A stretch of DNA of 63,078 nucleotides, the filler included, from Stramenopiles sp. TOSAG23-6 (Eukaryota): NCBI GenBank assembly GCA_900128565.1. It is 23 parts of 23 records of this genome, joined end to end, with 100 filler letters (N's around TTAATTAATTAA, not from the genome) between each part and the next. Parts side by side here need not be neighbours in the genome. Positions count along the whole stretch, not along the records: positions 55,006 to 57,632 come from LT637909.1; 22 more parts are not named here. One strand, 5' to 3'. Both the position numbers and the translations under genes were made by a program. The notes below the pieces were generated by a model. That model saw nothing but the letters and a program-made list of their open reading frames with translations, did no database searches and was not told where the DNA came from. Numbering within the stretch: position 1 is the first letter of the stretch; every line of letters begins with the position of its first letter. Below, piece by piece: positions 2,662 to 57,566 of the stretch.

Positions 2662-2790
2662 NNNNNNNNNNNNNNNNNNNNNNNNNNNNNNNNNNNNNNN
2701 NNNNNTTAATTAATTAANNNNNNNNNNNNNNNNNNNNNNNNNNNNNNNNNNNNNNNNNNNNGAAAAAAAACAAAAAATATAAAATAATAT

Positions 2791-4856: not shown

Positions 4857-4884
4857 AAAATTTATTTCATGGAGTTACAATATT

Positions 4885-7617: not shown

Positions 7618-7645
7618 AAAATTTATTTCATGGAGTTACAATATT

Positions 7646-10352: not shown

Positions 10353-10838
10353 TCACTTCTTATCACGTAAATTAGCCAAACGAGCTTCTAAATCATCAAC
10401 AGCAGGATCACATGCACCACCACCACCACCACCACCACCACCTCCCATGCCAACAGCAACTGGTGCTTGTGGCACATTAACAGCTGGTGCTGCATTCTGA
10501 GTGACTCTTTGCTCTGGAGCATCTGGAATATCCCCTGACATTTGAACACCACTATATTGTTACAATATATGTATATATATATATATTGTTTGTTAGGTAC
10601 AGAATTTTTTATAAAAAAAAAAAAAAAAAAATTGAAAAAAAAATTGAAATTTTTTTTTGTTTTTTGTTAGGTACAAAATTTCGTATGAAAAAAAAAAACA
10701 TACATTTCATCGAGTACTTGAGAGACAACCGCTTCTTCTTCCTCTTCATCGTCCATGTCTCCCATTGCTCCATCAATTGCTTCGCCCATATTTTCACCAA
10801 GCATATCAGATCGTTCATTTTCCATTTCAAATTGTTTC
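10353..10838 (-). CDS. CHMP2: ESCRT-III subunit CHMP2/Vps2, last two exons (10838-10704, 10551-10353)
   Basis: Spliced product KQFEMENERSDMLGENMGEAIDGAMGDMDDEEEEEAVVSQVLDEIGV...DDLEARLANLR matches the CHMP2 C-terminal half with its MIM1 motif. Confidence 0.85.
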
Positions 10839-11095: not shown

Positions 11096-13645
11096 ATGTA
11101 CATCAGAGGGCAAAAATTCGACTTTTTCGTGTGGAATAGGTAACCAATCGGATAAACCATAATCATAAGCAACACGAAATATGGCACAAATATCTTCATT
11201 TTGTGTGGTTGTTGTTGGAGAAAAAAGTTGAGGAGAAATATTTTTTTTTTCATCCATAACTTTCATATTGTCATCAAGCGACATTGCATTGAGTTCATCA
11301 TAATTAAATTGATGATAAATTTTTACTCTTTTTTTCATCGATTTACGTAATAATGAAATTTCCTTTGAGATTTCACTTTTTTTTTTCAAAACAAATTCAA
11401 TTAGTGTTCCTAATAAAATACCAGAATTTAACCACACACGAACCCGACTGCCTATCAAACGATTTAATTTCTTTTGTGATTTTTCATCCTTCAAATTCCA
11501 ATGTAAATCTGTATTAAAATTGAAATTTGAATTTGTCTTATTATCCGTCGTAATATCATTATCATTACTAGCATCACTCGAAAAAGAACAATTATCTACT
11601 ATTCCTCGAATATTTTTCAATTTTTCAGAGAGATGTATTTTGGAAAAATATTTCAAAAAAAAAAATTAAATTCGTTAGGTACAAAATTTCGTATGAAAAA
11701 ACAAAATCGATTTTTTTGTTAAAAAAAAAAAGTAAAACATACATGACTTTTTATACGTTTTTCATTCGTTTGATGATCTGGACGAATATCATTATAATTT
11801 CCATGAACTTTCATATATTTATTATATTCCTTCTTTTCTGATTCAAATCGTTTCACATCATCTTCTGCAAGTTTGATCTCCTCTGCTAAATCGGCTGGAG
11901 TGAGCTTTTTCATTTCTTTTTTTAATAAAGATATCCTTTCATATTGCGATAAATTGGGAAATAATTCTTGCATTGGTTGCATAAATTTAAGAACATAAAA
12001 ATCGAAGACACTTCGTGGAACATTTGGTTGTGGTTTTACATCAACATTTCCACGTTGACTACGTAGAGGAATTTTCCTTAAAACAATTTTACGACTATTG
12101 CTACTTTTTACACTGAACTTAAATTGATGTATACCAGTCATTTCCTTACTTTTAGTTGATAGTTTACAAGATTTTTTTTGTTTTTTTTGTTTCTTACAGT
12201 GAAAATCAGGAACAGAACTGTCTTTATAATTCCAAGTGACTTTTCGTTTTTGACCAGTTATGGCCACAGAATCACGTTCATCTAAAATATCTAAATCAGT
12301 TGTCTTGATTTCAGCAAGTCCATACTATACTGTGAAAAAATATTTTTGAAATATTTTTGAAATTTGTTTGGTAAAAATATTTTTTTAGTAAAAAAAAAAA
12401 AAATTGAAAAAATATTTTTGAAATTTGTTAGATATTATGATATTTTCTAGTAAAAAAAAATGAAATTCAAAAGGACGACGTACACGGTCTCGCTCTCTTT
12501 CGACAAATGCAGCGAGAATTTCAGGATTTTGTTTTTTCCATTGCATCAATTCTCTCGCATATCGAATTTTATCTTTTTCGTGTTTTTCATTTGCGATTTT
12601 TTTTTCTTCTTTTGTTGCTGCCTTCCAGCGGAGACCTAACTGACGATGAATATCCTGAGGTGTAGCATTTGGATCTGCTATTTTGATTAACGGTCGATGA
12701 ATTTCTGCAAAAAAATTGTATGGGATTTTCGGCCCTTTTGGTCCTCCAGGAATATATTGTGAAAAAAAAGTTCAAAACATTGTTTTGAAATTTGTTAGGT
12801 ACGAAATTTCGTACGAAAAAAATGAAAAAAAAAAAAAAAGTTCAAAACATTGTTTTGGAATTTGTTAGGTACGAAATTTCGTACGAAAAAAAAATGGAAA
12901 AAAAAAAAGTTGAAATTTTAATGGGAATGTACATTTTCCTTTGTCGTACGACTTTTCGTTTGCTTGGCTTTGGAGCTGTATCTTTTTGTATTAACCATTG
13001 TAAATATTCTCGCTTTCGCTGTTCACTTGAATCCCGATTTTTGATGTCACAAATGTGAATCGCTGGGCGACTTTTTTTTGAAGTTTTTATTGACTTTTTG
13101 AATTTGGTTTGATGAGATTTAAAACGAAATGAATGAAGCTCTCGCCCAAGTTCAATTGCTCTTCTATCTTTCTCAAAACAATCATCAGTGATTGGAATTC
13201 CACAGACATATTTATCTGTTTTTAATTCATATTTTGGATATTTTGTTTGAGTCAACAAAAGTTTTTCATCTTCATCAGAACTACAGCACGAAACTGCTTC
13301 AACAACATCAATATAAGGATTTTCATTCAACCATTTTGCAATATCTTTTGCATATCGATGTTTATCAAGAATAGACAGTCGATTCGCCTCAGCGATTTCT
13401 GCTTTTGTTGCCGCTGCCCAGCGATTTTTAATTACAACTTTCGTCTCAGCATTAGTTAATTGTGGATTTGTATTACGTAATTCGGCGCGAAGTTTAGTGA
13501 CAAATATATGATACGCTGGGATCCAACGTTTTGGACCTTTTCGACCTTCGATTCGAAGCTTCCTTCTCCTTAGATTTCGTGCAGACATTTCGAGATTTTG
13601 AAAACCATCATCATCGTGATCAGATCCAGAGTTATAAAATGAATC
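11096..13645 (-). CDS. Protein with three HMG boxes, partial; exons 13645-12933, 12751-12484, 12324-11743, 11632-11096
   Basis: HMG-box starts GPKRWIPAYHIF, GPKGPKIPYNFF and PNVPRSVFDFY. Exon phases are consistent after removing the family introns. Confidence 0.8.
11633..11742 (-). other. Non-canonical GT-AT intron (family member)
   Basis: CAT|GTATGT...TACCTAAC...TTCCAAAATACAT|CTC; phase-0 join KSH|LSE. Confidence 0.8.
12752..12932 (-). other. Non-canonical GT-AT intron with duplicated core motif
   Basis: AT|GTACAT...CACAATATAT|T; the join restores IPGGPKGPKIPY at an HMG-box start. Confidence 0.8.
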
Positions 13646-19316: not shown

Positions 19317-21972
19317 TACCATTAGATCAAGACGACATGCAATTTCAAGGTATAACAATTCTCCGTACAGAGATCTATATTTATAGCCTGATATAAATTT
19401 CGCATTTTGTCTTTCGTTCCCATTTTTCTCTTCTAGAACATCGTTTGTTGTTCTTTCAAGAGGTATTTTCGGATTCGGATTCATCGGAGTCTTCCTCTCT
19501 CGAGTTATACTTCGACCGTGTTTATTCATGATCTTTTCATATTTAGATAAAATGTCCAATACTTTTTGTTTCATGGAGACTTTGATTTCACCGTTGTCTC
19601 TCAGTTCAAAATTCATACCAATGTATGTGTATTGTTTCTTATTCATGTCAATGGTAAGATCTCCTTCAGACCATTTTTGCTTCATAGCGTCGAAAAGTTC
19701 GGTTGCTATTTCGTCATTATTGTAAACACAGAAAAAGTCGTCTACATGACATGCAATGTACATCACGCCTTTTTGTGTTTTCTTGACGAAGATGCATTCA
19801 TCAGTTGGGCAATTCTTGAAACCCTGATCTTGGAGAAATTTTCGTAGAACTCTATACCAAGCTGATGAACTCGATTTAAGTCCGTATAGGGAGCCTTTTA
19901 AATTAATAATGAAATTCTTATTATTGAAAGGAGTATTTCCCCATTCTTTCTTCCAAAGATTATTCTGTTTTAGAACTTTCTCTATATGCTTAGCGTTCAG
20001 TCCATGTGGTAGGTCCATTCCTATTATCATTCCTGATTCGAGACACGATTTTAGAAACGCTCCTGTTACATCGGCTGTGGCAATTTTCCAAGTAATTTTC
20101 TCATTTCTCCTGTATTGTTGCGTTCGTTCAAATGCACATTTTGTAGTTAGCATTCTAACGCTTATTGTATTGCTTACGGGTGAATATGAGAATTGATAGT
20201 CGATCCCTTTTACCATACCAAAGCCTCTAGCACATATTCTCGCTTTTATTTTGTTGAGAAGTCCGTCCTTTGCTGGTTTAACTTTCATAACAATGCGACT
20301 TGTCATATGCTGAGCTTTTGGATATTTTCTTTTGAAGTCTTTCCTTAGCATGAATTCGGTGATGTCGTTTCTTAAATTGAGTACGACTTCATCCGATTGT
20401 GCTAAGTTTATTCCTTCTTGAATTAGAATTGGTAATGCTTCGAATTCGGCTTGATTGGAAGGATTTTCTGGCCATTCTCTGACTGGTCCAAGTTCTTCGC
20501 GATGCGCTNNNNNNNNNNNNNNNNNNNNNNNNNNNNNNNNNNNNNNNNNNNNNNNNNNNNNNNNNNNNNNNNNNNNNNNNNNNNNNNNNNNNNNNNNNNN
20601 NNNNNNNNNNNNNNNNNNNNNNNNNNNNNNNNNNNNNNNNNNNNNNNNNNNNNNNNNNNNNNNNNNNNNNNNNNNNNNNNNNNNNNNNNNNNNNNNNNNN
20701 NNNNNNNNNATTACTGTGACTACATTTGCATTGCTATGATTGGATGCTTGACTTTCTCCTTCTTTCGATCCTTCATTCTCAGTTGTACTTGATTTTCGTT
20801 TTCTTCTTATTTCGTTTCTTCTCTTTTCTGTATTTCTCATTTCGTTATCCAGTACTTGTCTGATAATGTTACATATTGTATATCTTGTTTGAATCAAGTT
20901 AGAATTAGTTATCAACGATTTTCGTTTAATTTTAATTCTTTGTTGGATCTTGATACGACTGGATTTAGTAATATGTTTTGTATTATTTATCGTTTGCATG
21001 AAGTTCATATACGTCTTGCGTAGCTTTTTCTTTAGCTGATTACTTTGCTTTTCTTGCTTTTCTTGTAGCCGTTTCGATTTCCTTATTTNNNNNNNNNNNN
21101 NNNNNNNNNNNNNNNNNNNNNNTCCTTATTTCTTGTACCTTGGCCTTACGAGCCTTACGTCTTTGTTTGCGCAATACTTTGGCTCCTTCCTTTATCGCCG
21201 ATTCACTTGGTTTGAATTCTTTCGCATTGCGATCGAATTCATGTTTACTTTCGTCTGTTGGTTTTTCGGGTTTATCCGTATCCGAAATTTTTGTTGAAGA
21301 ATCTAAAACATCAGTAGATTGTTCATTCGATATTTCCGAAGAATCTATCTTTTCTGGTGTTGATTTTTCTTGTGTTCGATCTTGTGTATTATTTCCCCCA
21401 GTACTACTATTTGGAGTATCCAAATTTGTAGTGCTTGAATTGCGAACAGAAGGATCTTCCATTCTGTGTTCGTGTATTCTTGGGTCGAAAAGGAAACTTT
21501 TACTTCCTGAAGGTAAATCTTTGGGTGATAGTACCCATCTTTTCTTTCCATCGGGAAAAATAGCGGCGTACCATTTATTTGGCTGAAACTCTTCCTCGCA
21601 TTGCATAGTAAAAGTGTCGTTGCTATTTGATGTTTCTTTCGATTCGATCGATTTGGATTCTAGTACATCTTCCGGCACCACGTCTTGTTTATATTCGTGA
21701 CGTCGTTGCTGTAATGCACCTTTGCTACGATCCGGGATGTCTTTATTATAATTCAGGTCATCTTGATATACTTGCCGTTCTGTTTCATCTGTCCAATCGA
21801 ATTCATGTGACTTCCGTACGATTTCATACCCATCTTTTCCTTTTACTATCCATGTTTTTGTTATCTTAGGAGTGGTTGGAAATAGATCATCTGCGCTGTA
21901 GAGTAGAGTATGTCTACTTCTTGTAGTCGCATTGTTCGGTATAACTCTTCGTCCGGCTTCGCATGGAAATAA
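19317..21972 (-). mobile_element. Ty1/Copia LTR retrotransposon pol fragment; reverse transcriptase at about 19317-20400
   Basis: RVT_2 motifs KARICARGF, GIDYQFSYSPV, ADVTGAFL, LKGSLYGLKSS..AWY, HVDDF, YRSLYGELLYL..CRLDL. The upstream low-complexity ORFs are interrupted by N gaps, so their assignment to the element is inferred. Confidence 0.9.
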
Positions 21973-22132
21973 NNNNNNNNNNNNNNNNNNNNNNNNNNNN
22001 NNNNNNNNNNNNNNNNTTAATTAATTAANNNNNNNNNNNNNNNNNNNNNNNNNNNNNNNNNNNNNNNNNNNNTTTTTCGTACGAAATTTTGTACCTAACG
22101 ATTTTTTTTTGAAATATTTTTTCACAAAACAT

Positions 22133-23425
22133 GTTCTTCTGTCACACACAGAATTGACTAACCTCCTTGCAGAATTTAGACAATATGCTGTTTTAAACGA
22201 TTGGCCTCCACCGCATGACAAACAATCTTGGCTTAATAGAAAAAAAGATGATCCAAAATTAGTGTGTCCTTTGTTTCCTTTAGTATTGGCAGCATATTTG
22301 CGAAACCGTGAACCTCACGGGTGGAGTTGGGGTTTAGGTGATGGAAAATTATATGTAGTGAATAAGTTACTTCATAGTAGATCATGTATCTTTGTATCAT
22401 TTCTTTGCTTCGGATTTATATTTTCAGTAATGGCAACATTCATTGATGAAAAAGAAAAGGTTGCTGTTGAAGGAGAAGAAGATAAATGGACAGCATCAGT
22501 TTATAATTTAAATGGAATAGCAAAAGTTTTGTATACTTTTGGGTTTGTTGGTTGCCTTGACATCATCGTAAAAAATATTGCTGGAAAATTCCGACAAATT
22601 TCTACGGGAAAGTACGTTTTCATTATGAATTTCAAATTTATTTATTTTTTAGTACGAAATTTTGTACCTAATAAATTTCGAATTTTAATCTTTTTTACAA
22701 TACATGTCAATACTACGTCGTTGGGCGGCAAACATCCAAAATGATGTACATAATGATCGAGATATCGAGAATAAAACTGTAAAGCAAAACACAAGTTTAT
22801 TAGGCGAACTTGCAGATGTTGATGGAGATGGATGCATGTTTTATTTTTTTTTAATTCGAATTTTTGTTTCGTACGAAATTTTGTACCTAACGATTTTTTT
22901 CAGATATTTTTCCAAAATACATGTGTTGAAGTTTCTGAATTGAGGGCATTATTACTAGGTAGCGATATACCAATCAGTGAGCCTGCGATTCAATATATTT
23001 CACTTCAAATGCAAAAAATATCTCTAAATGATACTAAAATTGACCATGAAGAGTTCCAAAACTTTGTGATGTCCTTAAAATGTTCAACTAAAGTTGAGGA
23101 AAGCCTCTTTGTTTTTGAGCATGCGGTGCGAAATCCGATGATTTACGCTTTAGTATTTGCCATACTTTCATGCGCACTCGGTCTTGGTCAACATTTTGTC
23201 TGGGAAAGTAAAATAGTAATTGCCAAAGTAGCTGAATGCATGACGTTGTTCAGCGGTACAGTACCTATATATTACTACACTCAAGTAAAATGTGATCATT
23301 ATTTACTTGTGCAACAAGGAAAGCTTAATCTTGCCTGGGTTTTTAGAAACAGGATTACACAAAAGGAAAAAAAATCTTTAAAAGTTGCTGTAAAAAAGAC
23401 TCAACATCTAAATTTCTGGTTGTAA
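22133..23425 (+). CDS. Membrane protein with an EF-hand pair, 5'-partial; exons 22133-22611, 22706-22833, 22923-23425
   Basis: Splicing yields an intact EF-hand DVDGDGCVEVSEL and a second lobe KIDHEEFQNFV; several hydrophobic segments. Confidence 0.75.
22612..22705 (+). other. Non-canonical GT-AT intron
   Basis: AA|GTACGT...GTACGAAATTTTGTACCTAAT...TTACAATACAT|G; frame preserved. Confidence 0.8.
22834..22922 (+). other. Non-canonical GC-AT intron within an EF-hand loop
   Basis: T|GCATGT...TACCTAAC...TCCAAAATACAT|GT gives an exact 12-residue EF-hand loop. Confidence 0.85.
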
Positions 23426-23640
23426 TATTTAGTATTACTCATGAAATACAAATAATAAAAAGAAACGAGAAAAGGTTTACCGAGAATATACAATGTCACA
23501 AAAGCTTAGTTGTAGTCGAGTTTTATAAATTTCATCTAAATAAATTTGTTGAAAAATAATTCATTGATCATTTTTTTTTTCGTACGAAATTTTGTACCTA
23601 ACAAAAACAAAATTTGAAATATTTACTAGATGTTCAACTC

Positions 23641-24879: not shown

Positions 24880-26149
24880 ATCACCGCTACTCTCTATTTT
24901 ATTTTTTAGTTTTACGTAAAGTAATCGCCCCCGCAATGGATCAAACCAATTAGTTCGTATACCATGAAAACTTTGTATAAAACCTTGAGTAATTTCAGGT
25001 CTTACCTCATAAGGATGAATTGTGAAAAAAAAATTCAAAAATTTGAAATTCGTTAGGTACAAAATTAGGTACGAAAAAAAAAAAGGGTAAAAAATTCAAT
25101 GTGGGAAACGTACGTATTCTTTAACTCCTCCAGACATCATTTCTTGATTGTCTGTTACAGGTTTATAATCCTTTACCATCCTACCATAAATTACATCTCC
25201 AAGATATTCTTCATCGCCAACAAATCGTAAGTAGTCAAGTCTCTTTTCAGCGTCTAGTGGATTAAGTTCTGAATCTAAAGGAATTTCTAATTTTGTTTTC
25301 AACTTTTTGTCGGCTTTGTCATCAGAACACATGTAGAAATAATGTTTCCCCATTTTTGTCATTTCTGTTAAAAATTTCTTAAATAAATAGTCTATTTCAT
25401 CATAGTCAATAAATCGATATAAAAGCCTTTCAATTGCCATTATAGCTCGAATAAATTCACCAGCATCACCTCCTGGAGTACCGAGGATGGCATATGTATT
25501 TTGGAAAAATATTTCAAAAAAAAAAATCTAAATGTTTTTGTTAGGTACGAAATTTCCTACGAAAAAAACAAATCGAATTTGAAAAAAAATAAAACACACA
25601 TTCTGACCGTGGGTCAACACACGACAGGAAATGCCGATTTACTTCTTGTAATGGAATATTTGTAGGTCGGAGAAAAGATCCTTGGATAGCATTATCCTGG
25701 CGACAATGAGTTGGTATTTGTGGTAGCTCATATTTCCTTTCTTGTGGTTGTGGATTAAGCATTTGACAATATTGTATGTCGCTCAAACCTGCGTACCAAC
25801 CGAGGTGATATGCCACTTGTTCCCAACGTATACTGCTGTCATCCTCACTTCCACCACCATCACCGTCACCCATTTCTCCACTTTCCGGATTGTATTTTGA
25901 CTTACCGATACCTTTAACAGATAGGACGTATATCGTACAACCCTGTCCTGTCGATGTTCTTTGAGCTAGCCTTGTTTCATGACGAAGATTGGTCGGTACG
26001 TTTTTAGGTGTTTCATTCCAACTTTTAGGATCTGGCTTTCTGCCTGGTCCTCGACCTCGTCCACTAAAATAGTTGTGAAAAGGAATAATGGCGCAACAGA
26101 AGTTCCATTGTGTCATTAAAATGAAGAATATTGCTACATAATTAGCCAT
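24880..26149 (-). CDS. Signal-peptide protein with a CDCA/zeta-like carbonic-anhydrase-type motif, 3'-partial; exons 26149-25600, 25493-25114, 25014-24880
   Basis: Signal peptide MANYVAIFFILM. Spliced motif SCVDPRSEYAILGTPGGDAGEF resembles CVDGR...PGG. The family assignment is tentative. Confidence 0.55.
25015..25113 (-). other. Non-canonical GT-AT intron
   Basis: TAC|GTACGT...TTCACAATTCAT|CCT; phase 0. Confidence 0.75.
25494..25599 (-). other. Non-canonical GT-AT intron
   Basis: AT|GTGTGT...TACCTAAC...TTCCAAAATACAT|AT joins CVDPRSE to YAILGTPGG. Confidence 0.8.
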
Positions 26150-26514: not shown

Positions 26515-27400
26515 ATGGGAATGTATATGGAACCGCGCGATTGTAGACTCCCAAAGCTGCTGCCTCTTCGCACTCGTTTTGTGAAGCAGATTACTCCCTG
26601 TGGTTTCTCCGTTCTTCATCCGCTTCAGGAAGAGCCTTACACCACTGGAAACTTTCACTACCCGTCAACATATCGTGGGAATCTTACCGAAGTGCTACAC
26701 GGGAAACGAATTGAAGATCCATATCGGTGGCTAGAAGATTCGGATAATGCAGAAGTTACAAATTGGGTGGAGCGGCAGATGGACTGTACTTCTAACTACA
26801 TGAAAGCTCATTCTACAACAGTTGCAAATCTTCAGAAAGAAATGACTGCTTTATGGGATTATGAAAAGTTTGGCACTCCTTTTCGACGAGGCAATCGTTA
26901 TTTTTTTTTTAAGAATGATGGTTTACAGAATCAATACGTACTATGTATGTTTTATTTTTTTTCAAATTGGATTTTTTTTTCGTACGAAATTTTGTACCTA
27001 ACAGTTGTTTTTTGAAATATTTTTCCAAAATACATATAAGTGTAATTCATTGGAAGAAGCTATGTCCGGAAAGGCAACTGTGCTTCTCGATGTCAATACT
27101 TGGCGCACTGACGGGACTGCAGCCTTTAAGTTTGTGGAATTTTCTGAAGATGGTCTTTACTTAGCGTATGGTATTTCACTCAGTGGTTCCGATTGGACGA
27201 CTATCTATGTTCGCGATGTTGCATCAGGAAAAGATCTTTCTGATAAGATTGAGTGGGTGAAATTTTCGGGCGTTTCATGGACCCATGATAATCTTGGTTT
27301 CTTTTATAGTAGATATCCAGAACCTAGTCTAAACTTAGGAAAAGAAGACGCAGCTGGTAGTGAAACGGCTGGAAACCGTGATCATATGGTTTACTATCAT
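26515..27400 (+). CDS. PREP: Prolyl oligopeptidase (S9A), N-terminal part; exons 26515-26944, 27036-27400
   Basis: LHGKRIEDPYRWLED, YFFFKNDGLQNQYVLY, FSEDGLYLAYGISLSGSDW, WVKFSGVSWTHD..GFFYSRYP. Confidence 0.95.
26945..27035 (+). other. Non-canonical GT-AT intron
   Basis: T|GTATGT...TTCGTACGAAATTTTGTACCTAAC...TTCCAAAATACAT|AT restores GLQNQYVLY. The next AG (27039-40) gives an immediate stop. Confidence 0.88.
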
Positions 27401-31337: not shown

Positions 31338-32919
31338 ATGGGAAAGAAAATTGCAGCGACTGACACACAACTCCAACGGACGACTATTATTCTTCGAAAA
31401 ATGTGCCGTTCTATATCACAGAGAACGCATCAGATCGTTACTCAGAAAGTGCTTCCGCTAGTAACTCTGGATATACGTTCCCTAGCAGTAGCTCGGATAT
31501 TAATGTCACTCCTAACACTGGTAAATATATACCAGGTGATGAGAAATGATAAGCATTTTAGATTCTGGTACTGTGAAACTGGGTCAGCCATTCAGGACGT
31601 AAGAAGTGTCGAAAATGTAAATAATATATCAATATTCATGGCTTCTCGCGCTGATTTTTGGGCATACATTTGCATGTTTGTGTTCTCTTGTGCTGCGATA
31701 TGTTTTCTTGTAGGCTATGAAACGACAAAGTCGAATATTTTGATCTGGTTTATGTTAGTTGGGTATATGAATCGAGCGCCCATGATTTTTAATGGAGGAA
31801 ACAATACTCAAAAACTCTTTTATTTTTGGTCAATGTTTGTACCAATGGGTGAAGCACTATCAGTCGATAACTGGCTCAAAAATGAACCACAAAGAAGAAA
31901 ATCAAACATTGTCAATGGGGGTACAGTCGCATTGGTAGGACAGTTAGCTATAATGTATATAAGTAGCGGATACATAAAAATGAAAGATGAAGAATGGAGC
32001 ACTGGCGACGGAGTGTTTATGTACGTTTTATTTTTTTTTTTAACAAAAAAATCGATTTTTTTTTCGTACGAAAATTTGTACCTAACAAATTTAAGTTTTT
32101 TTTTTTGAAATATTTTCCCAAAATACATGGTATTTCAAGCGTACCAATATACGAAACCTTATTTTTCATCAATAATTCTCAAATACAAATTTCTATGGGC
32201 GCAAATGAACTACTTTGCAATAGAGTTAGAAATGTTGGGACCATGTTTTCTATTTTGTCCGTTTTATATTAATCAGGTAAGAATTTTCGTCATTTTCGCT
32301 TTTTTCTGTATGCACGGTGGATTTCTACTGACAATGGAACTTGGACTATTTCCTCTCATTTCTATGTCGTATTGGTGTGTATATATCCCAGGATCTGTAT
32401 GGTCATTATTTGGATGGGAAATTGCATGTTCCAACCAAGAAAATGGTACATGGGTCGCTGAAAATGATACAAAAAATGATACAAAAAATGATACAAAAAA
32501 TGATACAAAAAATGATACAAAATGTATCAAAAAAAAAATTACTCGCTCTAACCAAGAAAACGGAGCAGATGTCAATGGATATGGCAAAACTAAAAAGGGT
32601 ACAAAAATTATCAAAAAGAAAAAACACAGGACATCTAGGAGACTTGTACCTTTATTGAAAATCTTTATTTTTTATTGTACTCCAATCATAATTTTTATGA
32701 TACACGCTGAATGTACGTGTTCAAAATTGAATTTCGAATTTATTTTTTCATACGAAATTATGTACCTAACACTTTTTACAAAAAAAAAAAAAAAAAAAAA
32801 TTTTCACAATACATGGCAATTCTACAAACAAAAAAGAATGGGCAGCAGTTTCTATACCTTTCTTGTCTCACTTGGTTTAAGTTGTCAATTTAGTTATTTT
32901 ACACCTCCGCCAACGGCTT
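31338..32919 (+). CDS. HTTM-domain multi-pass membrane protein, 3'-partial; exons 31338-32020, 32129-32712, 32815-32919
   Basis: LDIRSLAVARI, NRAPMIFNGG, FWSMFVPMGEALSVD, QLAIMYISSGYIK..EWSTGDGV, HGGFLLTMELGLFP. GT-AT introns at 32021-32128 and 32713-32814. Confidence 0.8.
32461..32522 (+). repeat. 12-nt coding tandem repeat (NDTK x5)
   Basis: AAAATGATACAA repeated five times in frame. Confidence 0.9.
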
Positions 32920-35732: not shown

Positions 35733-36250
35733 NNNNNNNNNNNNNNNNNNNNNNNNNNNNNNNNNNNNNNNNNNNNTTAATTAATTAANNNNNNNNNNNN
35801 NNNNNNNNNNNNNNNNNNNNNNNNNNNNNNNNCACTCCAAATTTTACAAACGCTTTAAACGTTGCAGCAGTTGTCATTATATTGTCGGTTTACTTTTGCC
35901 CAAATTTGAATTAAGCTACTTGCTTGGTATCGCCGTCAAAAAAAATTCAAGATTTTCCAAAAATAATATCTTTCACTTTTTATCCGTTGCCGTTTGCTAC
36001 GAAAATTCGTACCTAACGATTCATTATTCTCTCCCAAAAATAAAAAAGAACATTCCCCGGAAATTGCCACTCGCTCCCTTGTCTGTAGACAAATCAAAAT
36101 CAAGTACAAACTGAAAAAAAAAAAACAATCTTGAAAAACCGAATAGTACATTCAATACGAATTGAAATTGGATTCTTTTTTACAGATATTTAATCCCTGT
36201 ACATAGATTTAGTGTAAATATAGTTGTTCATTACGTGGTTCTTATAGATA

Positions 36251-46926: not shown

Positions 46927-49200
46927 ATTGAGACAAAATTTTCGTAAATCATCATAGTCATTGTCTGGATCATATTCAAAATCATTTAAATGCAATACTA
47001 ATGTCGTTTTTACCAATCCTGCCTTTTGAAGAATACATTTATCTTTTCTTTCCTCAATATCAAATTTTGTTCCTTCCTATATTTTGAAAAATATTATTTT
47101 TTTAATTTGTTAGGTATGAAATTTTTTTTGAAATTTTTTTTTTTGAAATTTTTTTTGAAATTTTTTTTTTTTTTGAAAATAAAAAAAAAATAAATGAAAA
47201 AATGAAAAAATACATCTAAGTTTTGCCAAACGTCTAAAAACTGTAAAAAAGGATGTCGATTGGTTTCATCAGGTACAATTTCATATTCTACAATACTATC
47301 TTTATCTGGTATTTTTTCATCATTTATGTATTATTAAAAAAAATAAATTGTCTAATTGTTAGGTACAACATTTCGTACAAATTTTTTTAAAAAAAAGTTT
47401 AAAAAAAAAAAATAAATAAATAAATGATGAAAACAAACCTGCTAAAGACACGTTTAAAAATAGCACTATTTTCATCTGGTTTACCCTTGTCATAGATTGC
47501 AAATACAGCTACATCAATACTCTCCGCAAATTGATCAAGAACATGTATTTTGGAAAAATATTTCAAAAAAAAAAAAAAATTAAAAAAAAAAAATTCTTAG
47601 GTACAAAATTTCGTACAAAAAAAAAAAAAAAAAAAATATTCAAAATGGGTCAAAATATTTTTTTTGAAATTCATCCATTATTATCAAAATTTGTGAATGA
47701 TACAATATATAACATACTTCCTTATAAATCTCTGCTACAATATTTGGATCATTGCCATACTCTCCACAACCTAAAGCACCTAAAATAACAAATCGTTTTC
47801 CATATAATTTTAAACAATATTTTTTGATTTTTTTTTTTTTTGAAAATTTGTTAGGTACAAAATTTCGTATGAAAAAAAAATTAAAAAAAAAAATTCAAAA
47901 ATATTTTTTGATTTTTTTTTTTTGGCTTAGGTACAAAATTTCGTATGAAACCAAAAAAAAAAAAAGTAAAACATACATTTTCTGCAAGAGTTTGAAATTG
48001 CGCAACGATTCTTTTTTTCATTTCTTCTTTTTTTGTTTTGTAATGTTTTTTAAAAATTCGTCGTGGATTCATTCGACGATTATCCACCGCCGCAGCTCTC
48101 ATTTCATAAAATGGAGTAATTTTATCATCTCGAAGTAAACACCCTGTATTGTAAAGAAAAAAAAAATTCAAAAAAAAAAAATTTTAAATTTTTTGTTAGG
48201 TACAAAATTTACTATGAAAAAAAAAATTTCAAAAAAAAAATTCAAAAAAAAATTTCAAAAAAAAAATTTCAAAAAAAAAAATTTCAAAAAAAAAATTTCA
48301 AAAAATTGTGAAACATACATTTATCAGAACGATTTGATTTGATACGTACATTTAGTGAATTGGTTGTTAAATGCACACGACGCGAAAGTAACTGTATTTT
48401 GAGAAAATATTGTAATTTTTTTAAAATTTGATTTTTTTTTTGTTAGGTAACAAATTTCATACCAAAAAAAAAAAAAAAAAAAATATGAATCATGAAAAAT
48501 TACATCATCTTTTAAATGATTTACTTCGACCTCTGGATACATAGTTTGTTTATCAATGGTTTCATTAATTTTTCGTCCTTCGCATTCATTTGCTTTTCCA
48601 TTTATTAAATCTGCCTGTTTTGTGTGAAGAAAAAACATCAATAATAATAATAATGTTAGGTATGAAATTTTGTATGAATTTTTTTTTTTTTTTTTTTTAA
48701 TATTCATAGTAAAATTCATAGTAAAATTCATAGTAAAAAAATACTTGATGCTTCTTATAAATTCCACTTTTGTTTGTACCTAAACCCCAATATGTATGTT
48801 TAAAATCATCAATACTCATGTTTGTATATACATCAGTAGTTCGGAGAATTTCTTCTTCTTGTGTTAAGGCACCTGTAGTAGTAAAAAATATTGAAAAAAT
48901 GAAAAAAAATTTTTAGTTTTTTTAGTTTCAAAAAAAAAAAAAAAAAAATTTTTAGTTTCAAAAAAAAAAAATTCATGATAAATTTTTTTTTTTTTAAAAT
49001 ACCTTCAAGATATCTACCTCCAAAATGATAAGCACTAGCTAACAAAAGTACAACAAAAGTTTCTCCAAATTTTTCAGTGTATTTTGTTAGTATTTTCCCG
49101 ACATCACCACGTTCAATAAAAACTTTCATTGGATTTCGTGTCAACTTTTGTTTTTTGTTTTGTCTCCATCGATTCATATTTATTTCAGCCTTTTGATGAT
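46927..49200 (-). CDS. Microbial-type PARG (DUF2263/TIGR02452-like macrodomain), partial; exons 49200-49003, 48872-48745, 48614-48504, 48391-48319, 48143-47977, 47801-47718, 47542-47439, 47325-47214, 47076-46927
   Basis: Not visible in the ORF track. Manual splicing gives LLASAYHFGGRYLEGALTQEEEILRTT, PFYEMRAAAVD, VILGALGCGEYGNDP and VAVFAIY, with all exon phases consistent. Confidence 0.82.
47326..47438 (-). other. Non-canonical GT-AT intron
   Basis: AG|GTTTGT...TACCTAAC...AATAATACAT|A; frame preserved. Confidence 0.7.
47543..47717 (-). other. Non-canonical GT-AT intron
   Basis: GAA|GTATGT...TTCCAAAATACAT|GTT joins IYKE to VLDQF. Confidence 0.8.
47802..47976 (-). other. Non-canonical GT-AT intron
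   Basis: AAT|GTATGT...AAAATTATAT|GGA joins TLAEN to GKRFVILGALGCG. The next AG would shift the frame. Confidence 0.8.
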
Positions 49201-49547: not shown

Positions 49548-49579
<32 letters not shown>

Positions 49580-49642
49580 TATGAAATTTTGTACCTAACA
49601 AATTTTTTTAGAATTTTTTTGAAATATTTTTTCACAATTTAT

Positions 49643-49962
49643 CTGATGATGATATTGATTTTAACCTTGATTATTATTATGATGATACTGATGATGATGA
49701 TGATTTGACCGAGGAAGAAAGACAATTACACATTGAAAATCAATGGTGTAATGACCAATACCGTTTAAAAACAAGAAGAATGTCATTTGGGGATGATGAT
49801 GACTCTACTAACCCTAACCCTCGATATAATATGGATGATATTTCAACATATTATGCAAATATTTCACCATTCTCTTCTCAACACAATGCTGCCATAACAA
49901 TCCAAGCAATGTATCATCGTAATCAACTCCGTCATGAGAAAAAACATGAATCAAAAGTATGA
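49643..49962 (+). CDS. Terminal exon, acidic, with IQ motif (duplicate at 52372-52691)
   Basis: AAITIQAMYHRNQLR; preceded by intron end TTCACAATTTAT. Confidence 0.6.
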
Positions 49963-50091
49963 ATTGTATATAACAACAAAACACGAAATTCTTCCAAGTT
50001 AAAGTTGAAATCGTGTTTTTTAAATTTTTTAATTTTTTTAAATTTTTTTATTTTTTTATCGAAAATAAAAAAATAAAAAATATATAAAAAA

Positions 50092-51270
50092 TTATTCACT
50101 ATCACTATCAACAATTCTTCTCTTGATACGTTTTTTCTTTCTTGGTGGTTGCATATCTTCATTCGTTGACATTGATGATGATATGTCCATTGATTTTTCA
50201 TTCTCAAAATTTTTATTTTTCAATATTTCATTTTGGTCATTTTGGTTAGGGGTAGCATTATTATTATCCCCTAGATTGGTAGACGATTTCGTAGTAAAAT
50301 CTGTAGTTAAATCCATCATATCCTCATCATCATCATCATCATCATCATCATTTTTTTTTGATAGTCGACGTCTTTTGAATCGAGATTTTTTTGTAGTATT
50401 TTTTGTAGTATTTTTTTTGTTATTTTTCAAATTATTCAATGTTTGAATATTTTCATCATTAGGGTTAGGGTTAGCGCCTTGTAATCGAGATAAAACTTTA
50501 CTCCATTTAATTTGTTCTTGTGATTGATCGACGGTATACAAAATAGTTAAACCATTGGTAGCATCAATATTAAGAATTGTACCTATATTGAAAAAATATA
50601 TTTCGAAACATTTTACAACTTTTTTTTGTTAGGTACAACATTTACTATGAAAAAAAAATTATTGAAAAAAAAAAAATTATTGAAAAAAAAAAATTATTGA
50701 AAAAAAAAAAAGTTAAATATAGAAAAATTACAATCGTACCATTTGCCCTTATACCCAACAACAATTTCATCATTGACAGACCAACGACCGATTGCGAAAT
50801 CAGGAATTTTTGACTTCATTTTATCTTTTTGCATTTTCTCGATTTCGTGTTTTTTAGCTCTTTCTTCTGAATTTTTTTGTATCTCCGAAGGCAATTGTTT
50901 TTTAAGTATTTGATCCATATCACGAAGATGTTTATTTGGTACTAGATTTGAAATCCACCAAGCTGTTGTTTAGAAAATTTTAAAAATTTTATATTATTAG
51001 GTACGAAATTTTGTATGTGAATGAAAAAAAATTTAAAAAAAATTTAAAAAAAAATTTAAAAAAAAAATTTACATTTTTTTTAAAAAATGAAAATTTTTTT
51101 CAATCTATTTTTAAATACATGTACAATTCATATTAAAAACGTACATTTAATTTCAGGCGATGGTGAAATATTTGGAGGAAGAAATTCCAAAGATCGAAGA
51201 ACTCGATGAACCTATAGTGTGAAAAAATATTTCAAAAATTACAAAAATGTTTGTTAGGTACAAAATTTTG

Positions 51271-51301
<31 letters not shown>

Positions 51302-52176
51302 GTGAAATGAATTTTGAAATGAATTTTTGAAATGAATTTTGAAAGACTTACACTGCGATTTGATAGCCAATGTTGAATATTTTCGGGTTGTGTAGTATCA
51401 TTCATCTCTTCTGTAGACAATTTCTTTTTCGACTGTTTTGATTCAACATTTGTACCTAATTGGTACAAAGGAACTGAATATTTTTTTGTTTCATCATTTT
51501 TTGAATTTTCATCATTTTTTGAATTTTCATTTTCATCATTTTCATCACTTTCGACTTCATCTTCATCACTTTCATCACTTTCATCTTCATCATTTGAATA
51601 TTCATCACTTTCATCACTTTCATCATCATCATCTTCTTCATCATCATCATCATCACTTTTTGTATCTTCATTTTGTTGACTTAATTGAGAACTCATTACA
51701 TTCAATATCTGCATACTAATCCATTGTTTGAATGGTTTTAATGATTTTTTACTTAATTTGAACTCATTTTCTAATAAATTTCGTACTTTACTACCAAATA
51801 GTGTAAGAAAATATGTCAGAGAATAATAATGTTAGGTATCTAGATTATGTTTTAGTATTGGATTTTTATAATTGTACAACAAAATTAAAATTGAAATTTA
51901 AATTAAAATTTAAAAAAAAAAAAAAATTTGTTTTCTGTTAGGTACAAAATTTTGTATAATAAAAAAAATGTATATATATATATTATATATATATATATAT
52001 ATATAGGGTTAGGGTGTATAAAAACGTACTGTCATTGTGTTCATATCTGCATCTTTAAGAATATTTGATATTTCGTGAATAATTTGCTGTGCTGTCAACC
52101 CAACTGTAGAAAAATCAGGTCCATTTGTTGTATCAATTTCCATGCTAGGGTTAGGGTTTTCATCGATGTTTTGTTC
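50092..52176 (-). CDS. Chromatin-type protein with DEK-C and Tudor-like domains, 5'-partial; exons 52176-52030, 51795-51352, 51211-51145, 50962-50732, 50582-50092
   Basis: ILKDADMNTMT|GSKVRNLLENEF (DEK-C); WSVNDEIVVGYKGKWYDCTIL..ILY (Tudor-like). Phases are consistent. Confidence 0.68.
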
Positions 52177-52276: not shown

Positions 52277-52308
<32 letters not shown>

Positions 52309-52820
52309 TATGAAATTTTGTACCTAACAAATTTTTTTAGAATTTTTTTGAAATATTTTTTCACAATTTATCTGATGATGATATTGATTTTAACCTTGAT
52401 TATTATTATGATGATACTGATGATGATGATGATTTGACCGAGGAAGAAAGACAATTACACATTGAAAATCAATGGTGTAATGACCAATACCGTTTAAAAA
52501 CAAGAAGAATGTCATTTGGGGATGATGATGACTCTACTAACCCTAACCCTCGATATAATATGGATGATATTTCAACATATTATGCAAATATTTCACCATT
52601 CTCTTCTCAACACAATGCTGCCATAACAATCCAAGCAATGTATCATCGTAATCAACTCCGTCATGAGAAAAAACATGAATCAAAAGTATGAATTGTATAT
52701 AACAACAAAACACGAAATTCTTCCAAGTTAAAGTTGAAATCGTGTTTTTTAAATTTTTTAATTTTTTTAAATTTTTTTATTTTTTTATCGAAAATAAAAA
52801 AATAAAAAATATATAAAAAA

Positions 52821-53999
52821 TTATTCACTATCACTATCAACAATTCTTCTCTTGATACGTTTTTTCTTTCTTGGTGGTTGCATATCTTCATTCGTTGACA
52901 TTGATGATGATATGTCCATTGATTTTTCATTCTCAAAATTTTTATTTTTCAATATTTCATTTTGGTCATTTTGGTTAGGGGTAGCATTATTATTATCCCC
53001 TAGATTGGTAGACGATTTCGTAGTAAAATCTGTAGTTAAATCCATCATATCCTCATCATCATCATCATCATCATCATCATTTTTTTTTGATAGTCGACGT
53101 CTTTTGAATCGAGATTTTTTTGTAGTATTTTTTGTAGTATTTTTTTTGTTATTTTTCAAATTATTCAATGTTTGAATATTTTCATCATTAGGGTTAGGGT
53201 TAGCGCCTTGTAATCGAGATAAAACTTTACTCCATTTAATTTGTTCTTGTGATTGATCGACGGTATACAAAATAGTTAAACCATTGGTAGCATCAATATT
53301 AAGAATTGTACCTATATTGAAAAAATATATTTCGAAACATTTTACAACTTTTTTTTGTTAGGTACAACATTTACTATGAAAAAAAAATTATTGAAAAAAA
53401 AAAAATTATTGAAAAAAAAAAATTATTGAAAAAAAAAAAAGTTAAATATAGAAAAATTACAATCGTACCATTTGCCCTTATACCCAACAACAATTTCATC
53501 ATTGACAGACCAACGACCGATTGCGAAATCAGGAATTTTTGACTTCATTTTATCTTTTTGCATTTTCTCGATTTCGTGTTTTTTAGCTCTTTCTTCTGAA
53601 TTTTTTTGTATCTCCGAAGGCAATTGTTTTTTAAGTATTTGATCCATATCACGAAGATGTTTATTTGGTACTAGATTTGAAATCCACCAAGCTGTTGTTT
53701 AGAAAATTTTAAAAATTTTATATTATTAGGTACGAAATTTTGTATGTGAATGAAAAAAAATTTAAAAAAAATTTAAAAAAAAATTTAAAAAAAAAATTTA
53801 CATTTTTTTTAAAAAATGAAAATTTTTTTCAATCTATTTTTAAATACATGTACAATTCATATTAAAAACGTACATTTAATTTCAGGCGATGGTGAAATAT
53901 TTGGAGGAAGAAATTCCAAAGATCGAAGAACTCGATGAACCTATAGTGTGAAAAAATATTTCAAAAATTACAAAAATGTTTGTTAGGTACAAAATTTTG

Positions 54000-54030
<31 letters not shown>

Positions 54031-54905
54031 GTGAAATGAATTTTGAAATGAATTTTTGAAATGAATTTTGAAAGACTTACACTGCGATTTGATAGCCAAT
54101 GTTGAATATTTTCGGGTTGTGTAGTATCATTCATCTCTTCTGTAGACAATTTCTTTTTCGACTGTTTTGATTCAACATTTGTACCTAATTGGTACAAAGG
54201 AACTGAATATTTTTTTGTTTCATCATTTTTTGAATTTTCATCATTTTTTGAATTTTCATTTTCATCATTTTCATCACTTTCGACTTCATCTTCATCACTT
54301 TCATCACTTTCATCTTCATCATTTGAATATTCATCACTTTCATCACTTTCATCATCATCATCTTCTTCATCATCATCATCATCACTTTTTGTATCTTCAT
54401 TTTGTTGACTTAATTGAGAACTCATTACATTCAATATCTGCATACTAATCCATTGTTTGAATGGTTTTAATGATTTTTTACTTAATTTGAACTCATTTTC
54501 TAATAAATTTCGTACTTTACTACCAAATAGTGTAAGAAAATATGTCAGAGAATAATAATGTTAGGTATCTAGATTATGTTTTAGTATTGGATTTTTATAA
54601 TTGTACAACAAAATTAAAATTGAAATTTAAATTAAAATTTAAAAAAAAAAAAAAATTTGTTTTCTGTTAGGTACAAAATTTTGTATAATAAAAAAAATGT
54701 ATATATATATATTATATATATATATATATATATAGGGTTAGGGTGTATAAAAACGTACTGTCATTGTGTTCATATCTGCATCTTTAAGAATATTTGATAT
54801 TTCGTGAATAATTTGCTGTGCTGTCAACCCAACTGTAGAAAAATCAGGTCCATTTGTTGTATCAATTTCCATGCTAGGGTTAGGGTTTTCATCGATGTTT
54901 TGTTC
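52821..54905 (-). CDS. Duplicate copy of the DEK-C/Tudor-like gene
   Basis: Identical to 50092-52176. Confidence 0.65.
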
Positions 54906-55114: not shown

Positions 55115-55935
55115 AATTTCTGGTCTTTTCGACCTAAAATTAATAAGCGCTCGCGGGACAGACGGCCAAGGACATTAGATGAGATGAGTACTGGAGATGC
55201 TTTGCGAAAAGAAACAACACAGAGACTTTTAAAGATAAAAGCAGAACAAGATATGTATGTTTTTAAAAACCCTAATTTAAATTTTTTTTTCAAAAATTTT
55301 TTCAAAATTTTTTCAATTTTTTTTTTTTTTTTTTCATAGTAAATTTTGTACCTAACCAAAAAAAAAAATATATATATTTTTTCACAATAAATGATGAAAG
55401 GTGTTACGTTCCAACCCAAGACGAATAGTGGGTCTCGTCTTGCACCACAAAGTGTGGGGCGATTGCAAATTCTTAGTGCTCCAGACAGTTACATTGCAAG
55501 AGTACAAAATCAAGTATGTTTTTTTTTTTTTTTCAATGTTTAGTCAAAATTTTCTTTATACGAAATTTTGTACCTAACAAATTTTCAAAATTTTTTTTGA
55601 AATATTTTTTCATCATACATGCAAATTTAAATTCGGAAAGGAAAAGACGAGCTGCACAGGAATCCGATATGATGGAATTCTCTGAATGTACATTTAAACC
55701 ACAAGTTCATGATGCTCCTGCCTATATGTATGTTTTTTTTTCAATGTTCAGTTTTTTAGTCTAAATTTTTTTTTTATACGAAATTTTGTACCTAACGAAT
55801 TTTTTTTTTTTTTGAAATATTTTTCCAAAATAAATTATACGAATCGCAAGAAGTTTAGCTGCAACCAAGGCTGCTAGAGCTGCGGCTGAGGCAGTTCATA
55901 ATAATAAACGCATAGAAAAACCATCTTGGAAGTAA
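55115..55935 (+). CDS. C-terminus of a protein with (C/V)TF(K/Q)P repeats; exons 55115-55254, 55393-55513, 55621-55727, 55836-55935
   Basis: Three GT-AT introns give WSFRPKIN, DMMKGVTFQPK, ECTFKPQVHDAPAYIIRIARS...KPSWK*. Confidence 0.75.
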
Positions 55936-55981
55936 AGCAAACAATAACTAATAATAAATGCATAGAAAAGCCAATTTGTGG

Positions 55982-56071
55982 ACGTAGTATGAATTTTGTT
56001 TGTACAACATCTTAGGTACAAAATTTCGTATGAAAAAAAAATATTTTGAAAAAAAAAAAAAAAACACACAC
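55982..56071 (-). mobile_element. Intron-family element in non-coding DNA, inserted in one unit of a local repeat
   Basis: Minus strand GTGTGTGTTT...CATACGAAATTTTGTACCTAAG...CATACTACGT. Removing it restores TGGAAGTAAAGCAAA as in the neighbouring unit. Confidence 0.7.
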
Positions 56072-56331
56072 AAGTAAAGCAAATTTTCTGTAACTACTAT
56101 ACGATAATACATGCATAGAAAAAAGCTAAATTGGGAAATAAAGGCACTGATATAAGTGTTGATAAATATATTTTCGCAATAAAAAAGAGTTGTTTAAATT
56201 GTAAATTTTTTTTTTGTCAAATGTTTTTTTATTTTTATAAAAATTTTACACAAATAGTACGCAATGTACAATTTAAATTTACAGTATGAAAAATACAGAT
56301 AAAAAAAAAGTTGAAAATCAAATTAAAAAAA

Positions 56332-57133
56332 TTATAAGACTGCAAATAAAAGCGCAGCTGATTCAGGATTTTTTCGAATTCGTCGTTTTCTTGGACTTTC
56401 TTTAGGTTTTTTTGTATGTTTTGTATGTTTTTTTGTAGTAGGGTTAGGGTTTGGAGATTCTGTATTAGGGTTAGGGTTTACTACATCATTTTTTCCTATT
56501 TGAGTTTTTTTTTCAAAATCATTTATTCGATTCTCTCTTGGACTTTTTGGAGTTTTTGGAGTTGTTGGACGTCTAAACGATTTTCCACTTGAAGTAGCTA
56601 ACCATGTATTTTGGAAAAATATTTGAAAAGAAAAATTAAAAATTTTTGTTAGGTACAAAATTTCGTATGAAACCAAAAACCAAAAAAAATAAAAATAAAA
56701 ATATTTTTTTTTTTTTACCGAAAAAAAAAAAAATTAATAAAACATACAATTACGTAATGTATAAGAGCATTCAGCATTAGAATAACGAGGTCTTATATTT
56801 CGTATCGTTTTTGATCTTTTTAATGAAAATAACTCTTTATTTGTGTTGATAAACTGTTCAGAAGATCCAACGGAGCTAATGTTACCCAACGAAAGTTGTC
56901 GTAATTTTAAAGGTAACTTTCCATGTAGTAAGAAAAATATTTCAAAAAAAAAAAAAAATTCGTTAGGTACAAAATTTCGTACGAAAAAAAAAATTGAAAA
57001 AAAAATAAAACATACAGTATTTGTTCTAGCCTTTCGCATATCTTCCAACATACTATGACACTCCAATGCAGATTTTGCAGCAGGTCTGTAATGAGGTATA
57101 TTTCTATTCACTTTATTCACTGAATAGACTTTC

Positions 57134-57173
<40 letters not shown>

Positions 57174-57566
57174 CATCTGGATACAATTTATTCTCTTGTA
57201 TAGCTTTTTTAGATTCATCTATATTCAAATTTTGTATAGTTTTATTAGGGTTAGGGTTTTGAAGACTATTTGAAAGTATTGAATGAATACGAAATTCAGG
57301 TAAACACAAGTCTAAACATGACGTCACAAATGGTCTCCAAATATCAGTATCTGTAAAAAAACGTTCCACTAAAAGTTGAATGGATGTATTTTGAAAAAAT
57401 ATTTAAAAATTTACCAAAAAAAAAATTTGTTAGGTACAAAATTTTTTTACCAAAAAAAAAAAAAATCGATTAGGGCTAGGGTTAGGGTTAAAAAAAAAAA
57501 TAAAACATACATTGAGTCTCACATATTTTATCTAAAAAATGCCCACGTTCTTTTTCAGTCGCAGAA
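56332..57566 (-). CDS. C-terminal part of a protein with a polyQ tract; exons 57566-57511, 57383-57016, 56922-56748, 56603-56332
   Basis: Three GT-AT introns give a continuous ORF. FLDKICETQSIQLLVERF is weakly dDENN-like. Confidence 0.65.

Follow-up and report, generated by a model that had tools for sequence, protein, structure and literature searches.

A member of a short intron family interrupts one of three tandem units between two convergent genes of Stramenopiles sp. TOSAG23-6

Where new introns come from is a long-standing open question, and one locus in the genome of Stramenopiles sp. TOSAG23-6 (GCA_900128565.1) puts it in concrete form: what is the 90-nucleotide (nt) block that lies between two convergent genes, resembles the introns inside those genes, and splits one of three tandem units where the other two are continuous? 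We analyzed a window (the whole stretch of DNA studied here) of 63,078 nt, in which the block and both flanking genes lie on the contig at 55006-57632 (LT637909.1). We consider it highly probable that the block is an introner-type insertion, that is, a member of a multi-copy family of short introns, and that it entered the second unit, between the convergent genes, after the tandem duplication.

The evidence starts from the three degenerate tandem units and the 90 nt that split the second of them:

55899-55941, plus strand: unit 1, an empty site, containing the last 12 codons of the plus-strand gene and its TAA stop (55933-55935).
55949-55981, plus strand: left part of unit 2, ending ...TTTGTGG at the insertion point; 30 nt of it are 87% identical to 55899-55928.
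55982-56071, minus strand: inserted family copy, 90 nt, GTGTGTGT(T)n...TACGAAATTTTGTACCTAAG...CATACTACGT.
56072-56083, plus strand: right part of unit 2, AAGTAAAGCAAA, identical to 55930-55941.
56104-56147, plus strand: unit 3, a second and more diverged empty site, placed by alignment to the emptied unit 2.

The motif GCATAGAAAA occurs four times in the window (0.26 expected), three of them here at 55910, 55960 and 56113, and AAGTAAAGCAAA occurs exactly twice, at 55930 and 56072. A repeat search returned a 20-nt direct-repeat family of three copies spaced by 50 and 153 nt, together with a 30-nt pair (55899/55949, 87% identity) and a 12-nt exact pair (55930/56072). Once 55982-56071 had been taken out, unit 2 aligned with unit 1 in 45 columns, of which 40 were identical and 3 mismatched, and two 1-nt gaps were needed; none of 1000 shuffles (maximum 29) and none of 1663 random window segments (maximum 22) came up to the score of 61. 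Unit 3 matched the emptied unit 2 in 34 of 41 columns, with a score that none of 2000 shuffles reached. The insertion point is uninterrupted in both of these units (TGG/AAG in unit 1 and GGG/AAA in unit 3, the slash marking the point), which gives two empty sites and one filled site at one repeat position. The junction is ambiguous by 1 nt, a plus-strand A, such that the insert is either 55982-56071 or 55983-56072.

An earlier, sequence-only reading of this DNA had described three degenerate units, one of them filled, and had proposed aligning them as a check; the alignments and the repeat search confirm both the units and the 90-nt insert that interrupts one exactly where the two others run on. 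The extent of the repeat required adjustment: the units are real, but the start given, 55909, is 1 nt early, and the left edge of the unit lies 11 nt further left than claimed (TAATAATAAAY before GCATAG). The description of the repeat as non-coding did not hold, as unit 1 is the coding tail of the plus gene (HNNKRIEKPSWK*). Units 2 and 3 are thus decayed tandem duplicates of the 3’ end of that gene.

The inserted 90 nt belong to a family of short introns, of which they form a full-length copy on the minus strand. That strand of the insert holds the family core TACGAAATTTTGTACCTAA with 19 of 19 matches, and it aligns end to end, from first G to last T, with 13 compact intron copies. The same alignment shows that the minus-strand ends proposed earlier, GT...CGT, match the excision ends of the family, to within 1 nt, or 2 nt at the 5’ end. 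At that end the insert reads GTGTGTGT(T)n where the family has GTATGTTTT, although GTGTGT occurs in one genic copy; at the other end it reads ...CATACTACGT, as against ...CTTACTACAT in the intron at 56923-57015, whose ACTACAT is the closest match to the insert’s ACTACGT. The usual GAAATATTTTT block is missing from the insert, and its box is CCTAAG where most family copies have CCTAAC. Three of its signals, GTGTGTGT, CCTAAG and ...ACGT, are therefore off the family norm, the last being found otherwise only at the copy at 24725.

The family itself is abundant. Its core matches the window 58 times at no more than 3 mismatches, against 0.06 expected, which leaves about 47 non-redundant copies, roughly one per kb, after duplicate contigs, an inverted duplicate and palindromic double hits are dropped. 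The 14-sequence alignment of the insert and the 13 copies has a mean column identity of 65% and an invariant GTACCTAA box, and in the consensus, GTATGTTTT...GTACCTAAC, the box lies 33-45 nt ahead of the 3’ end. Each genic copy brings its own 5’ splice site (GTATGT or GTACGT) together with a branch-point-like box, TACCTAAC. Among 22 curated copies, the 5’ border is GT in 21 and GC in one, and the 3’ border is AT in 18 and AG in four.

Both genes that flank the insert contain such copies:

55255-55392, plus strand: family intron of the plus gene, GTATGT...ATAAAT.
55514-55620, plus strand: family intron of the plus gene, GTATGT...ATACAT.
55728-55835, plus strand: family intron of the plus gene, GTATGT...ATAAAT; right past 55835, contigs of other copies part from it.
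55836-55935, plus strand: last exon of the plus gene, modeled with 4 coding exons and 133 amino acids, MSTGD to SWK*.
56332-56603, minus strand: last exon of the minus gene, stop at 56334-56332, converging on the plus gene.
56604-56747, minus strand: family intron of the minus gene.
56923-57015, minus strand: family intron of the minus gene, 3’ end ACTACAT.
57384-57510, minus strand: family intron of the minus gene, with CCCTAA-type repeats; contigs of other copies have loose ends at 57384.

All six of these introns fit a GT...AT rule of removal, and both frames are then uninterrupted: the plus gene has a 402-nt frame (133 amino acids from its ATG) whose modeled C-terminus reads ...HNNKRIEKPSWK* with the stop at 55933-55935, and the minus gene has a frame of more than 290 amino acids across three family introns. 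The points at which contigs of other copies part, 55835 and 57384, are family 3’ ends. This and all other read evidence used here consists of assembled contigs from 4 runs, and the joints and pieces that we cite are among those listed for them. The 222-amino-acid exon of the minus gene had no homologue among 1.84 billion representatives, and Pfam gave no family for any exon of either gene.

Across the window, a script placed both element ends in 28 of 52 core matches, the remaining 24 lying beside gaps or having no recognizable end. In 22 of the 28 rows the family 3’ end keeps phase with the long open frames on either side, and it does so in 14 of the 16 rows with unambiguous frames; the two exceptions among these 16 are one double-core intron whose 3’ end the pattern had misplaced. 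In-phase ends alone are compatible with a downstream AG kept in frame by selection. For four confident copies, however, the AGs listed within about 60 nt include none that is in frame. Homology adds to this. The prolyl oligopeptidase gene spliced by the rule gives YVLYKCNSLEEAMSG, as against YVLYKANSLEDAMNG in a relative; joining 26944 to 27036 gives ...GLQNQYVLYKCNSLEEAMSGKATVLLDVN, where the relative P0002 (78% identical over the aligned exon; PDB alignments were also used) has ...GLQNQYVLYKANSLEDAMNGKASVLLDIN, and the in-frame AG alternatives bring in a stop or lose conserved residues. The junction at 25494-25599 yields CVDPRSEYAILGTPGGDAGEF, collinear with CLDGRYRNGIVGTPGGDAGEF of P0122. 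The plus-strand intron at 22834-22922 starts GCATGT, making a GC-AT pair, and its removal rebuilds DVDGDGCVEVSEL, which we take to fit the EF-hand loop pattern. The exon at 22073-22741 returned no homologue among longer proteins. Because frames and homology are restored in this way, removal of the genic copies must run from the G of GT up to and including the final T of ...ACAT or, in older-looking copies, the G of ...ACAG. Thus, judging from frames and homology, most family copies seem to act as GT-AT introns.

Several further features of the family deserve mention. The exon dinucleotide before the intron is AT in 14 of the 22 copies (19 have A at -2 and 17 have T at -1), as in the introns at 26945-27035, 32021-32128 and 11633-11742; exons end in AG in most eukaryotes. 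The first exon base after the intron is G in 11 of 22. Copies that end in AG have more diverged cores, with a mean of 2.1 mismatches (n=8) as against 1.0 in AT-ending copies (n=22; one-sided Mann-Whitney p=0.017 on a hand-made tally). AT ends may mature to AG, or there may be two subfamilies. AG-ending copies include:

48144-48318: family copy ending in AG.
50963-51144: family copy ending in AG.
51212-51351: family copy ending in AG.
10552-10703: family copy ending in AG.

Two tandem cores are present in the minus-strand introns at 10552-10703, about 12790-12900 and 47833-47976, one of them with a 70-nt internal period, and these look like internal duplications rather than nested full insertions. 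The center of most copies is a perfect 12-nt palindrome, TTTCGTACGAAA (for example at 26978-26989), which explains the reverse-strand core matches at 12800, 12870 and 51002. A decayed plus-strand copy without the GTATGT end lies between convergent genes at about 23560-23640. A plus-strand core fragment at 35998-36016 lies upstream of an E2 (Pex4-like) gene, whose own intron looks ordinary (GTAAGT...AG). Telomere-like CCCTAA repeats occur inside two introns, at 57384-57510 on the minus strand and in the 51956 region, and this hexamer also encodes Asn-Pro repeats (NPNPN) in exons of the minus gene (56440-56480, minus strand).

The position of the insert completes the picture. The stops of the convergent genes are 396 nt apart, and the insertion point lies 47 nt past the stop of the plus gene, to which the copy is antisense. 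Our model is that the 3’ end of the plus gene would first have been duplicated in tandem to give three units, and that the element would then have inserted into unit 2, within the 396-nt interval between the stops, leaving units 1 and 3 as paralogous empty sites. The copy would be neutral and inert at this site, with splice signals free to drift; it is probably unspliced. We infer this order of events from the family membership of the insert, the filled and empty sites and the matching ends, and the restoration of frames and homology in genes suggests that the genic copies are removed by a spliceosome.

A number of observations weigh against this model. The insert has 2 extra nt at its 5’ end (GTGTGTGT where the family has GTRTGT) and ends in GT, and these two departures would also fit a 2-bp GT target duplication. 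The empty sites are paralogous units and not alleles, and unit 2 has 1-nt indels of its own near the junction. The left junction is without cover, the bins at 55886-55973 being empty in all four runs. On the right, the bins at 56062-56149 are covered by run X1 only, from which a 596-nt contig aligns with 56079-56629 and carries 44 more, unplaced letters towards the right junction. As for removal, AT stands both upstream and at the intron end in 11 of the 22 copies, and when AT is followed by an intron with an ACAT end, GT-AT and AT-AC boundaries give the same mRNA; we read all copies as GT-AT because GTATGT, unlike ATGTATGT, is a standard 5’ splice site. One copy only, at 22612-22705, has both a non-AT flank and no in-frame AG, and homology at junctions with non-AT flanks comes down to a weak ‘YP’ adjacency with P0122. 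No spliced junction was present among the joints listed from contigs of the four runs. All of those joints came from X1; their short sides measured 20-30 letters and lay inside repeats, and we took them as repeat artefacts. Contigs listed for the RNA library X3 (55136-55264 and 56347-56615) run 10-12 nt unspliced into two introns; they show 0 differences and represent either RNA that is unspliced or DNA that was carried over. Frames and homology are thus what points to removal at the RNA level.

The strongest competing explanation makes the family a miniature DNA transposon whose short inverted ends are GTAT...ATAC and whose 2-bp target duplication is usually AT and here GT, the intron being the element plus one duplication copy. 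We regard this as possible but doubtful. AT lies just upstream of 14 of the 22 copies, where its background dinucleotide frequency is 0.10, and it also closes 18 of the 22. The ATGTAT and ATACAT termini complement each other, and in the minimum-free-energy folds of most copies GUAU is paired with AUAC. The inserted copy can be read as GT/GTGTGT...CTAC/GT, and an element GTRTGT...TAC would explain both its extra 5’ bases and its GT end. Moreover, most introner families described in the accessible sections of two surveys are DNA transposons (PMC9860276; PMC11282704). However, a GT duplication would require a plus-strand AC, which is absent from units 1 and 3, and at most 1 nt can be assigned to both sides of the insert, in keeping with the earlier remark that no target duplication was obvious. 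Upstream AT and terminal AT coincide in 11 of 22 copies, where independence predicts 11.5, and none of the 8 copies with a non-AT upstream flank ends in its own upstream dinucleotide. The complementary termini are limited to ATGTAT...ATACAT, 4-6 nt. The left arm matches the reverse complement of the right arm no better than shuffles do in 13 of 14 copies (z of about 0 to 1 in 12 of 14). Fold energies are likewise no better than those of shuffles (z of -0.05 to -1.0). A consensus RNA structure of the family, with 5 pairs and no covariation, was set aside as uninformative.

Since the inserted and the excised block agree in their ends to 1 nt, or to 2 nt at the 5’ end, and the site has no target duplication longer than 1 nt, the unit that moves is the one that is spliced. 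We infer that the family consists of introners without target duplications or inverted termini, of a kind that the accessible part of PMC9860276 also reports. They may have spread either by reverse splicing followed by DNA copying or by an unrecognized DNA mechanism.

A more specific version of the RNA route holds that these are true GT-AT spliceosomal introns that spread as exact units, without duplication, through RNA, for example by reverse splicing into a transcript that is then copied back. The insert would be a fossil acquired in a read-through transcript of the minus gene, and the diverged AG-ending copies would be older ones that matured to canonical ends. In this detailed form we consider the proposal unlikely. 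A copia-type reverse transcriptase (RVT_2) open frame lies at 19317-20507 on the minus strand; a source of reverse transcriptase thus exists in the genome. Fungal introner-like elements (van der Burgt et al. 2012) are reportedly similar short introns without target duplications or inverted termini, for which reverse splicing is said to have been proposed as the mode of spread. Those elements reportedly have GT-AG ends and a stable predicted structure, whereas the family here has GT-AT ends and shuffle-like folds.

The sequence-only reading had gone further and taken the insert for an intron in the 3’ untranslated region of the minus gene, lying inside its transcript and spliced from it. Only the orientation survives: the copy is in sense to the minus gene and points the same way as that gene’s family introns, which would happen by chance one time in two. 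Two hexamers between the stops are candidate poly(A) signals on their sequence:

55953-55958, plus strand: AATAAA, 18 nt past the plus stop, with the insertion point 24 nt further on.
56228-56233, minus strand: AATAAA, the sole minus-strand one between the stops, 99 nt past the minus stop.

The copy starts 261 nt past the stop of the minus gene and 157 nt past that gene’s only hexamer, a placement that speaks against its inclusion in the transcript. An intron far behind the stop also exposes an mRNA to nonsense-mediated decay in many eukaryotes, which counts against it too. Its unusual signals have precedents in part, as one apparently functional genic copy has the GTGTGT 5’ end (25494-25599) and another the CCTAAG box (47543-47717), but its ...ACGT end recurs only at 24725, and no joint from 56072 to 55981 is among those listed. 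We therefore find splicing at this site quite improbable.

Slightly less probable still is removal by something other than U2-type splicing, whether ciliate-like DNA elimination, a U12-type spliceosome or a euglenid-like nonconventional pathway. In its favor, the element ends can pair and the listed joints include no spliced RNA. U12-type introns, including the expanded set of Physarum, also share long conserved 5’ and branch motifs with this family and tolerate a last base other than G, and GT-AT is known as a minor class among them, according to the accessible part of the source (10.1101/2020.10.12.336362). But the family reads GTATGTTTT...GTACCTAAC where U12-type introns have RTATCCTT and TTCCTTRAC: its 5’ end is GTATGT or GTACGT, not RTATCCTT, and its box TACCTAAC, which lies 33-45 nt before the 3’ end, comes closer to the TACTAAC of U2-type introns. 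Ciliate internal eliminated sequences are bounded by TA, while the flanks here are AT/GT...AT/N (slashes marking the element borders), and under the standard code neither an 882-codon frame nor the oligopeptidase exons contain a stop, whereas a ciliate variant code would lead one to expect in-frame stops in long frames. An exon-intron junction is, in addition, present in an RNA-library contig. The euglenid class, like the non-canonical introns of Fritillaria and Amoebophrya, either has no conserved GT or shows clear inverted termini and target duplications, according to the accessible sections of PMC11282704.

Two further explanations are extremely improbable. One, that the element predates the duplication of the gene tail and afterwards dropped out of units 1 and 3 precisely, has nothing specific in its favor, needs two exact deletions where one insertion suffices, and would place the element antisense inside the last codons of the plus gene in unit 1; the earlier view that the insertion followed the repeat is accordingly the more parsimonious one. 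An assembly artefact that joined two loci through a high-copy repeat is suggested by a fragmentary assembly of 2.6-kb contigs, exact duplicates included, and by the presence of the element in thousands of contigs, but both flanks continue one unit, as those of a chimera would not (33 nt match unit 1 on the left and 12 of 12 nt on the right, where unit 3 follows), and a contig of X1, assembled independently, spans 56629 to 56079 with its 44 further letters.

An introner-type insertion into unit 2 thus remains our preferred explanation, and the system works like introners elsewhere. Introners are known from Micromonas, Aureococcus and many other mostly aquatic eukaryotes, and the accessible sections of PMC9860276 and PMC11282704 describe families both with and without target duplications and inverted termini. 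As with the family here, the near-identical short introns number in the hundreds to thousands and lie in unrelated genes, without exception in sense; they supply splice signals, their removal returns the original frame, and intergenic copies exist. Here, too, there are many near-identical copies in unrelated genes, element ends that coincide with intron ends, and a filled site with empty counterparts, these being paralogous. The differences are that 18 of the 22 curated copies here end in AT and not AG, that the site has no duplication of more than 1 nt, and that the inverted termini are not significant. No introner family with GT-AT ends was found in the literature searched.

The family is unlike the non-canonical classes of Fritillaria, Amoebophrya and euglenids. 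The introns of Fritillaria borealis derived from miniature inverted-repeat transposable elements resemble it in looking derived from transposons, in having non-AG 3’ ends and in belonging to a marine eukaryote (PMC11282704; PMC13326754, both as far as accessible). According to the former source, however, they are mostly AG-AC or AG-AT, with inverted termini, target duplications and no conserved GT, whereas the family here has a 5’ GT (21 of 22) or GC (1 of 22) within a strong GTATGT, and a 3’ AT or AG. The non-canonical introners of Amoebophrya are likewise multi-copy, with unusual borders, and occur in a marine protist; the same sections of PMC11282704 give them 3-5-nt target duplications, conserved inverted termini and highly variable borders, in contrast to the one fixed border pair and the lack of duplication here.

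The window consists of 23 contigs of about 2.6-2.7 kb each, sorted by size and joined by 100-nt linkers of N and TTAATTAATTAA; gene order and distances across the linkers are therefore meaningless. The linkers are:

2662-2761, 5423-5522 and onwards: linkers, N...TTAATTAATTAA...N.

The contigs at 1-2661, 2762-5422 and 5523-8183 are mutually identical, and those at 49548-52176 and 52277-54905 are an identical pair. GC content ranges from 22 to 38%. Eukaryotic genes in the window include TAFII55, Nup96, HMG boxes and a GINS subunit, in addition to the prolyl oligopeptidase, the E2 enzyme and the copia-type reverse transcriptase; a neighbouring contig carries an ABC-transporter gene, for which an ESM Atlas search yielded the protein family but no lineage. 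Rfam and tRNA scans of the window gave no matches. Pieces of the contig at 55006-57632 recur with 0 differences in contigs of seawater RNA libraries that stem from two studies, X3 sharing 269 nt and X5 136 nt. Two small DNA runs labelled ‘organism A’ contain 0.50 and 0.40 of the contig’s sampled words. We therefore treat the source as an AT-rich marine eukaryote. The repeat regions of the contig drew 5811 contigs of run X1 and 631, 911 and 3674 contigs from three seawater runs. To look for empty/filled polymorphism, 28 nt of the minus gene’s last exon were compared with metagenome_contigs and had no match there, and a 20-nt family core had none in metagenome_contigs or viral_contigs. A match of the 20-nt core in a Bacteroidales metagenome-assembled genome (L001) was dropped, about one chance match being expected in 596 billion bases.

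Searches of the literature on GT-AT, on the box sequence and on introners with GTATGT found no description of this family, which is not proof that none exists. The value of the site is that it defines the mobile unit independently of any reading frame, and that this unit equals the excised intron, with no visible duplication. Most documented introner families end in AG once spliced. The genic copies and the site together point to an abundant AT-ending intron class in an uncultured-looking marine eukaryote. Surveys that rely on annotated canonical introns would miss or discard such a class; one survey, in its accessible sections, discarded families with unfamiliar splice sites unless they were confirmed by transcripts (PMC12130899). 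If removal from GT to AT is true, the organism would offer a natural system for studying relaxed 3’ splice-site recognition and the insertion of introns without duplication.

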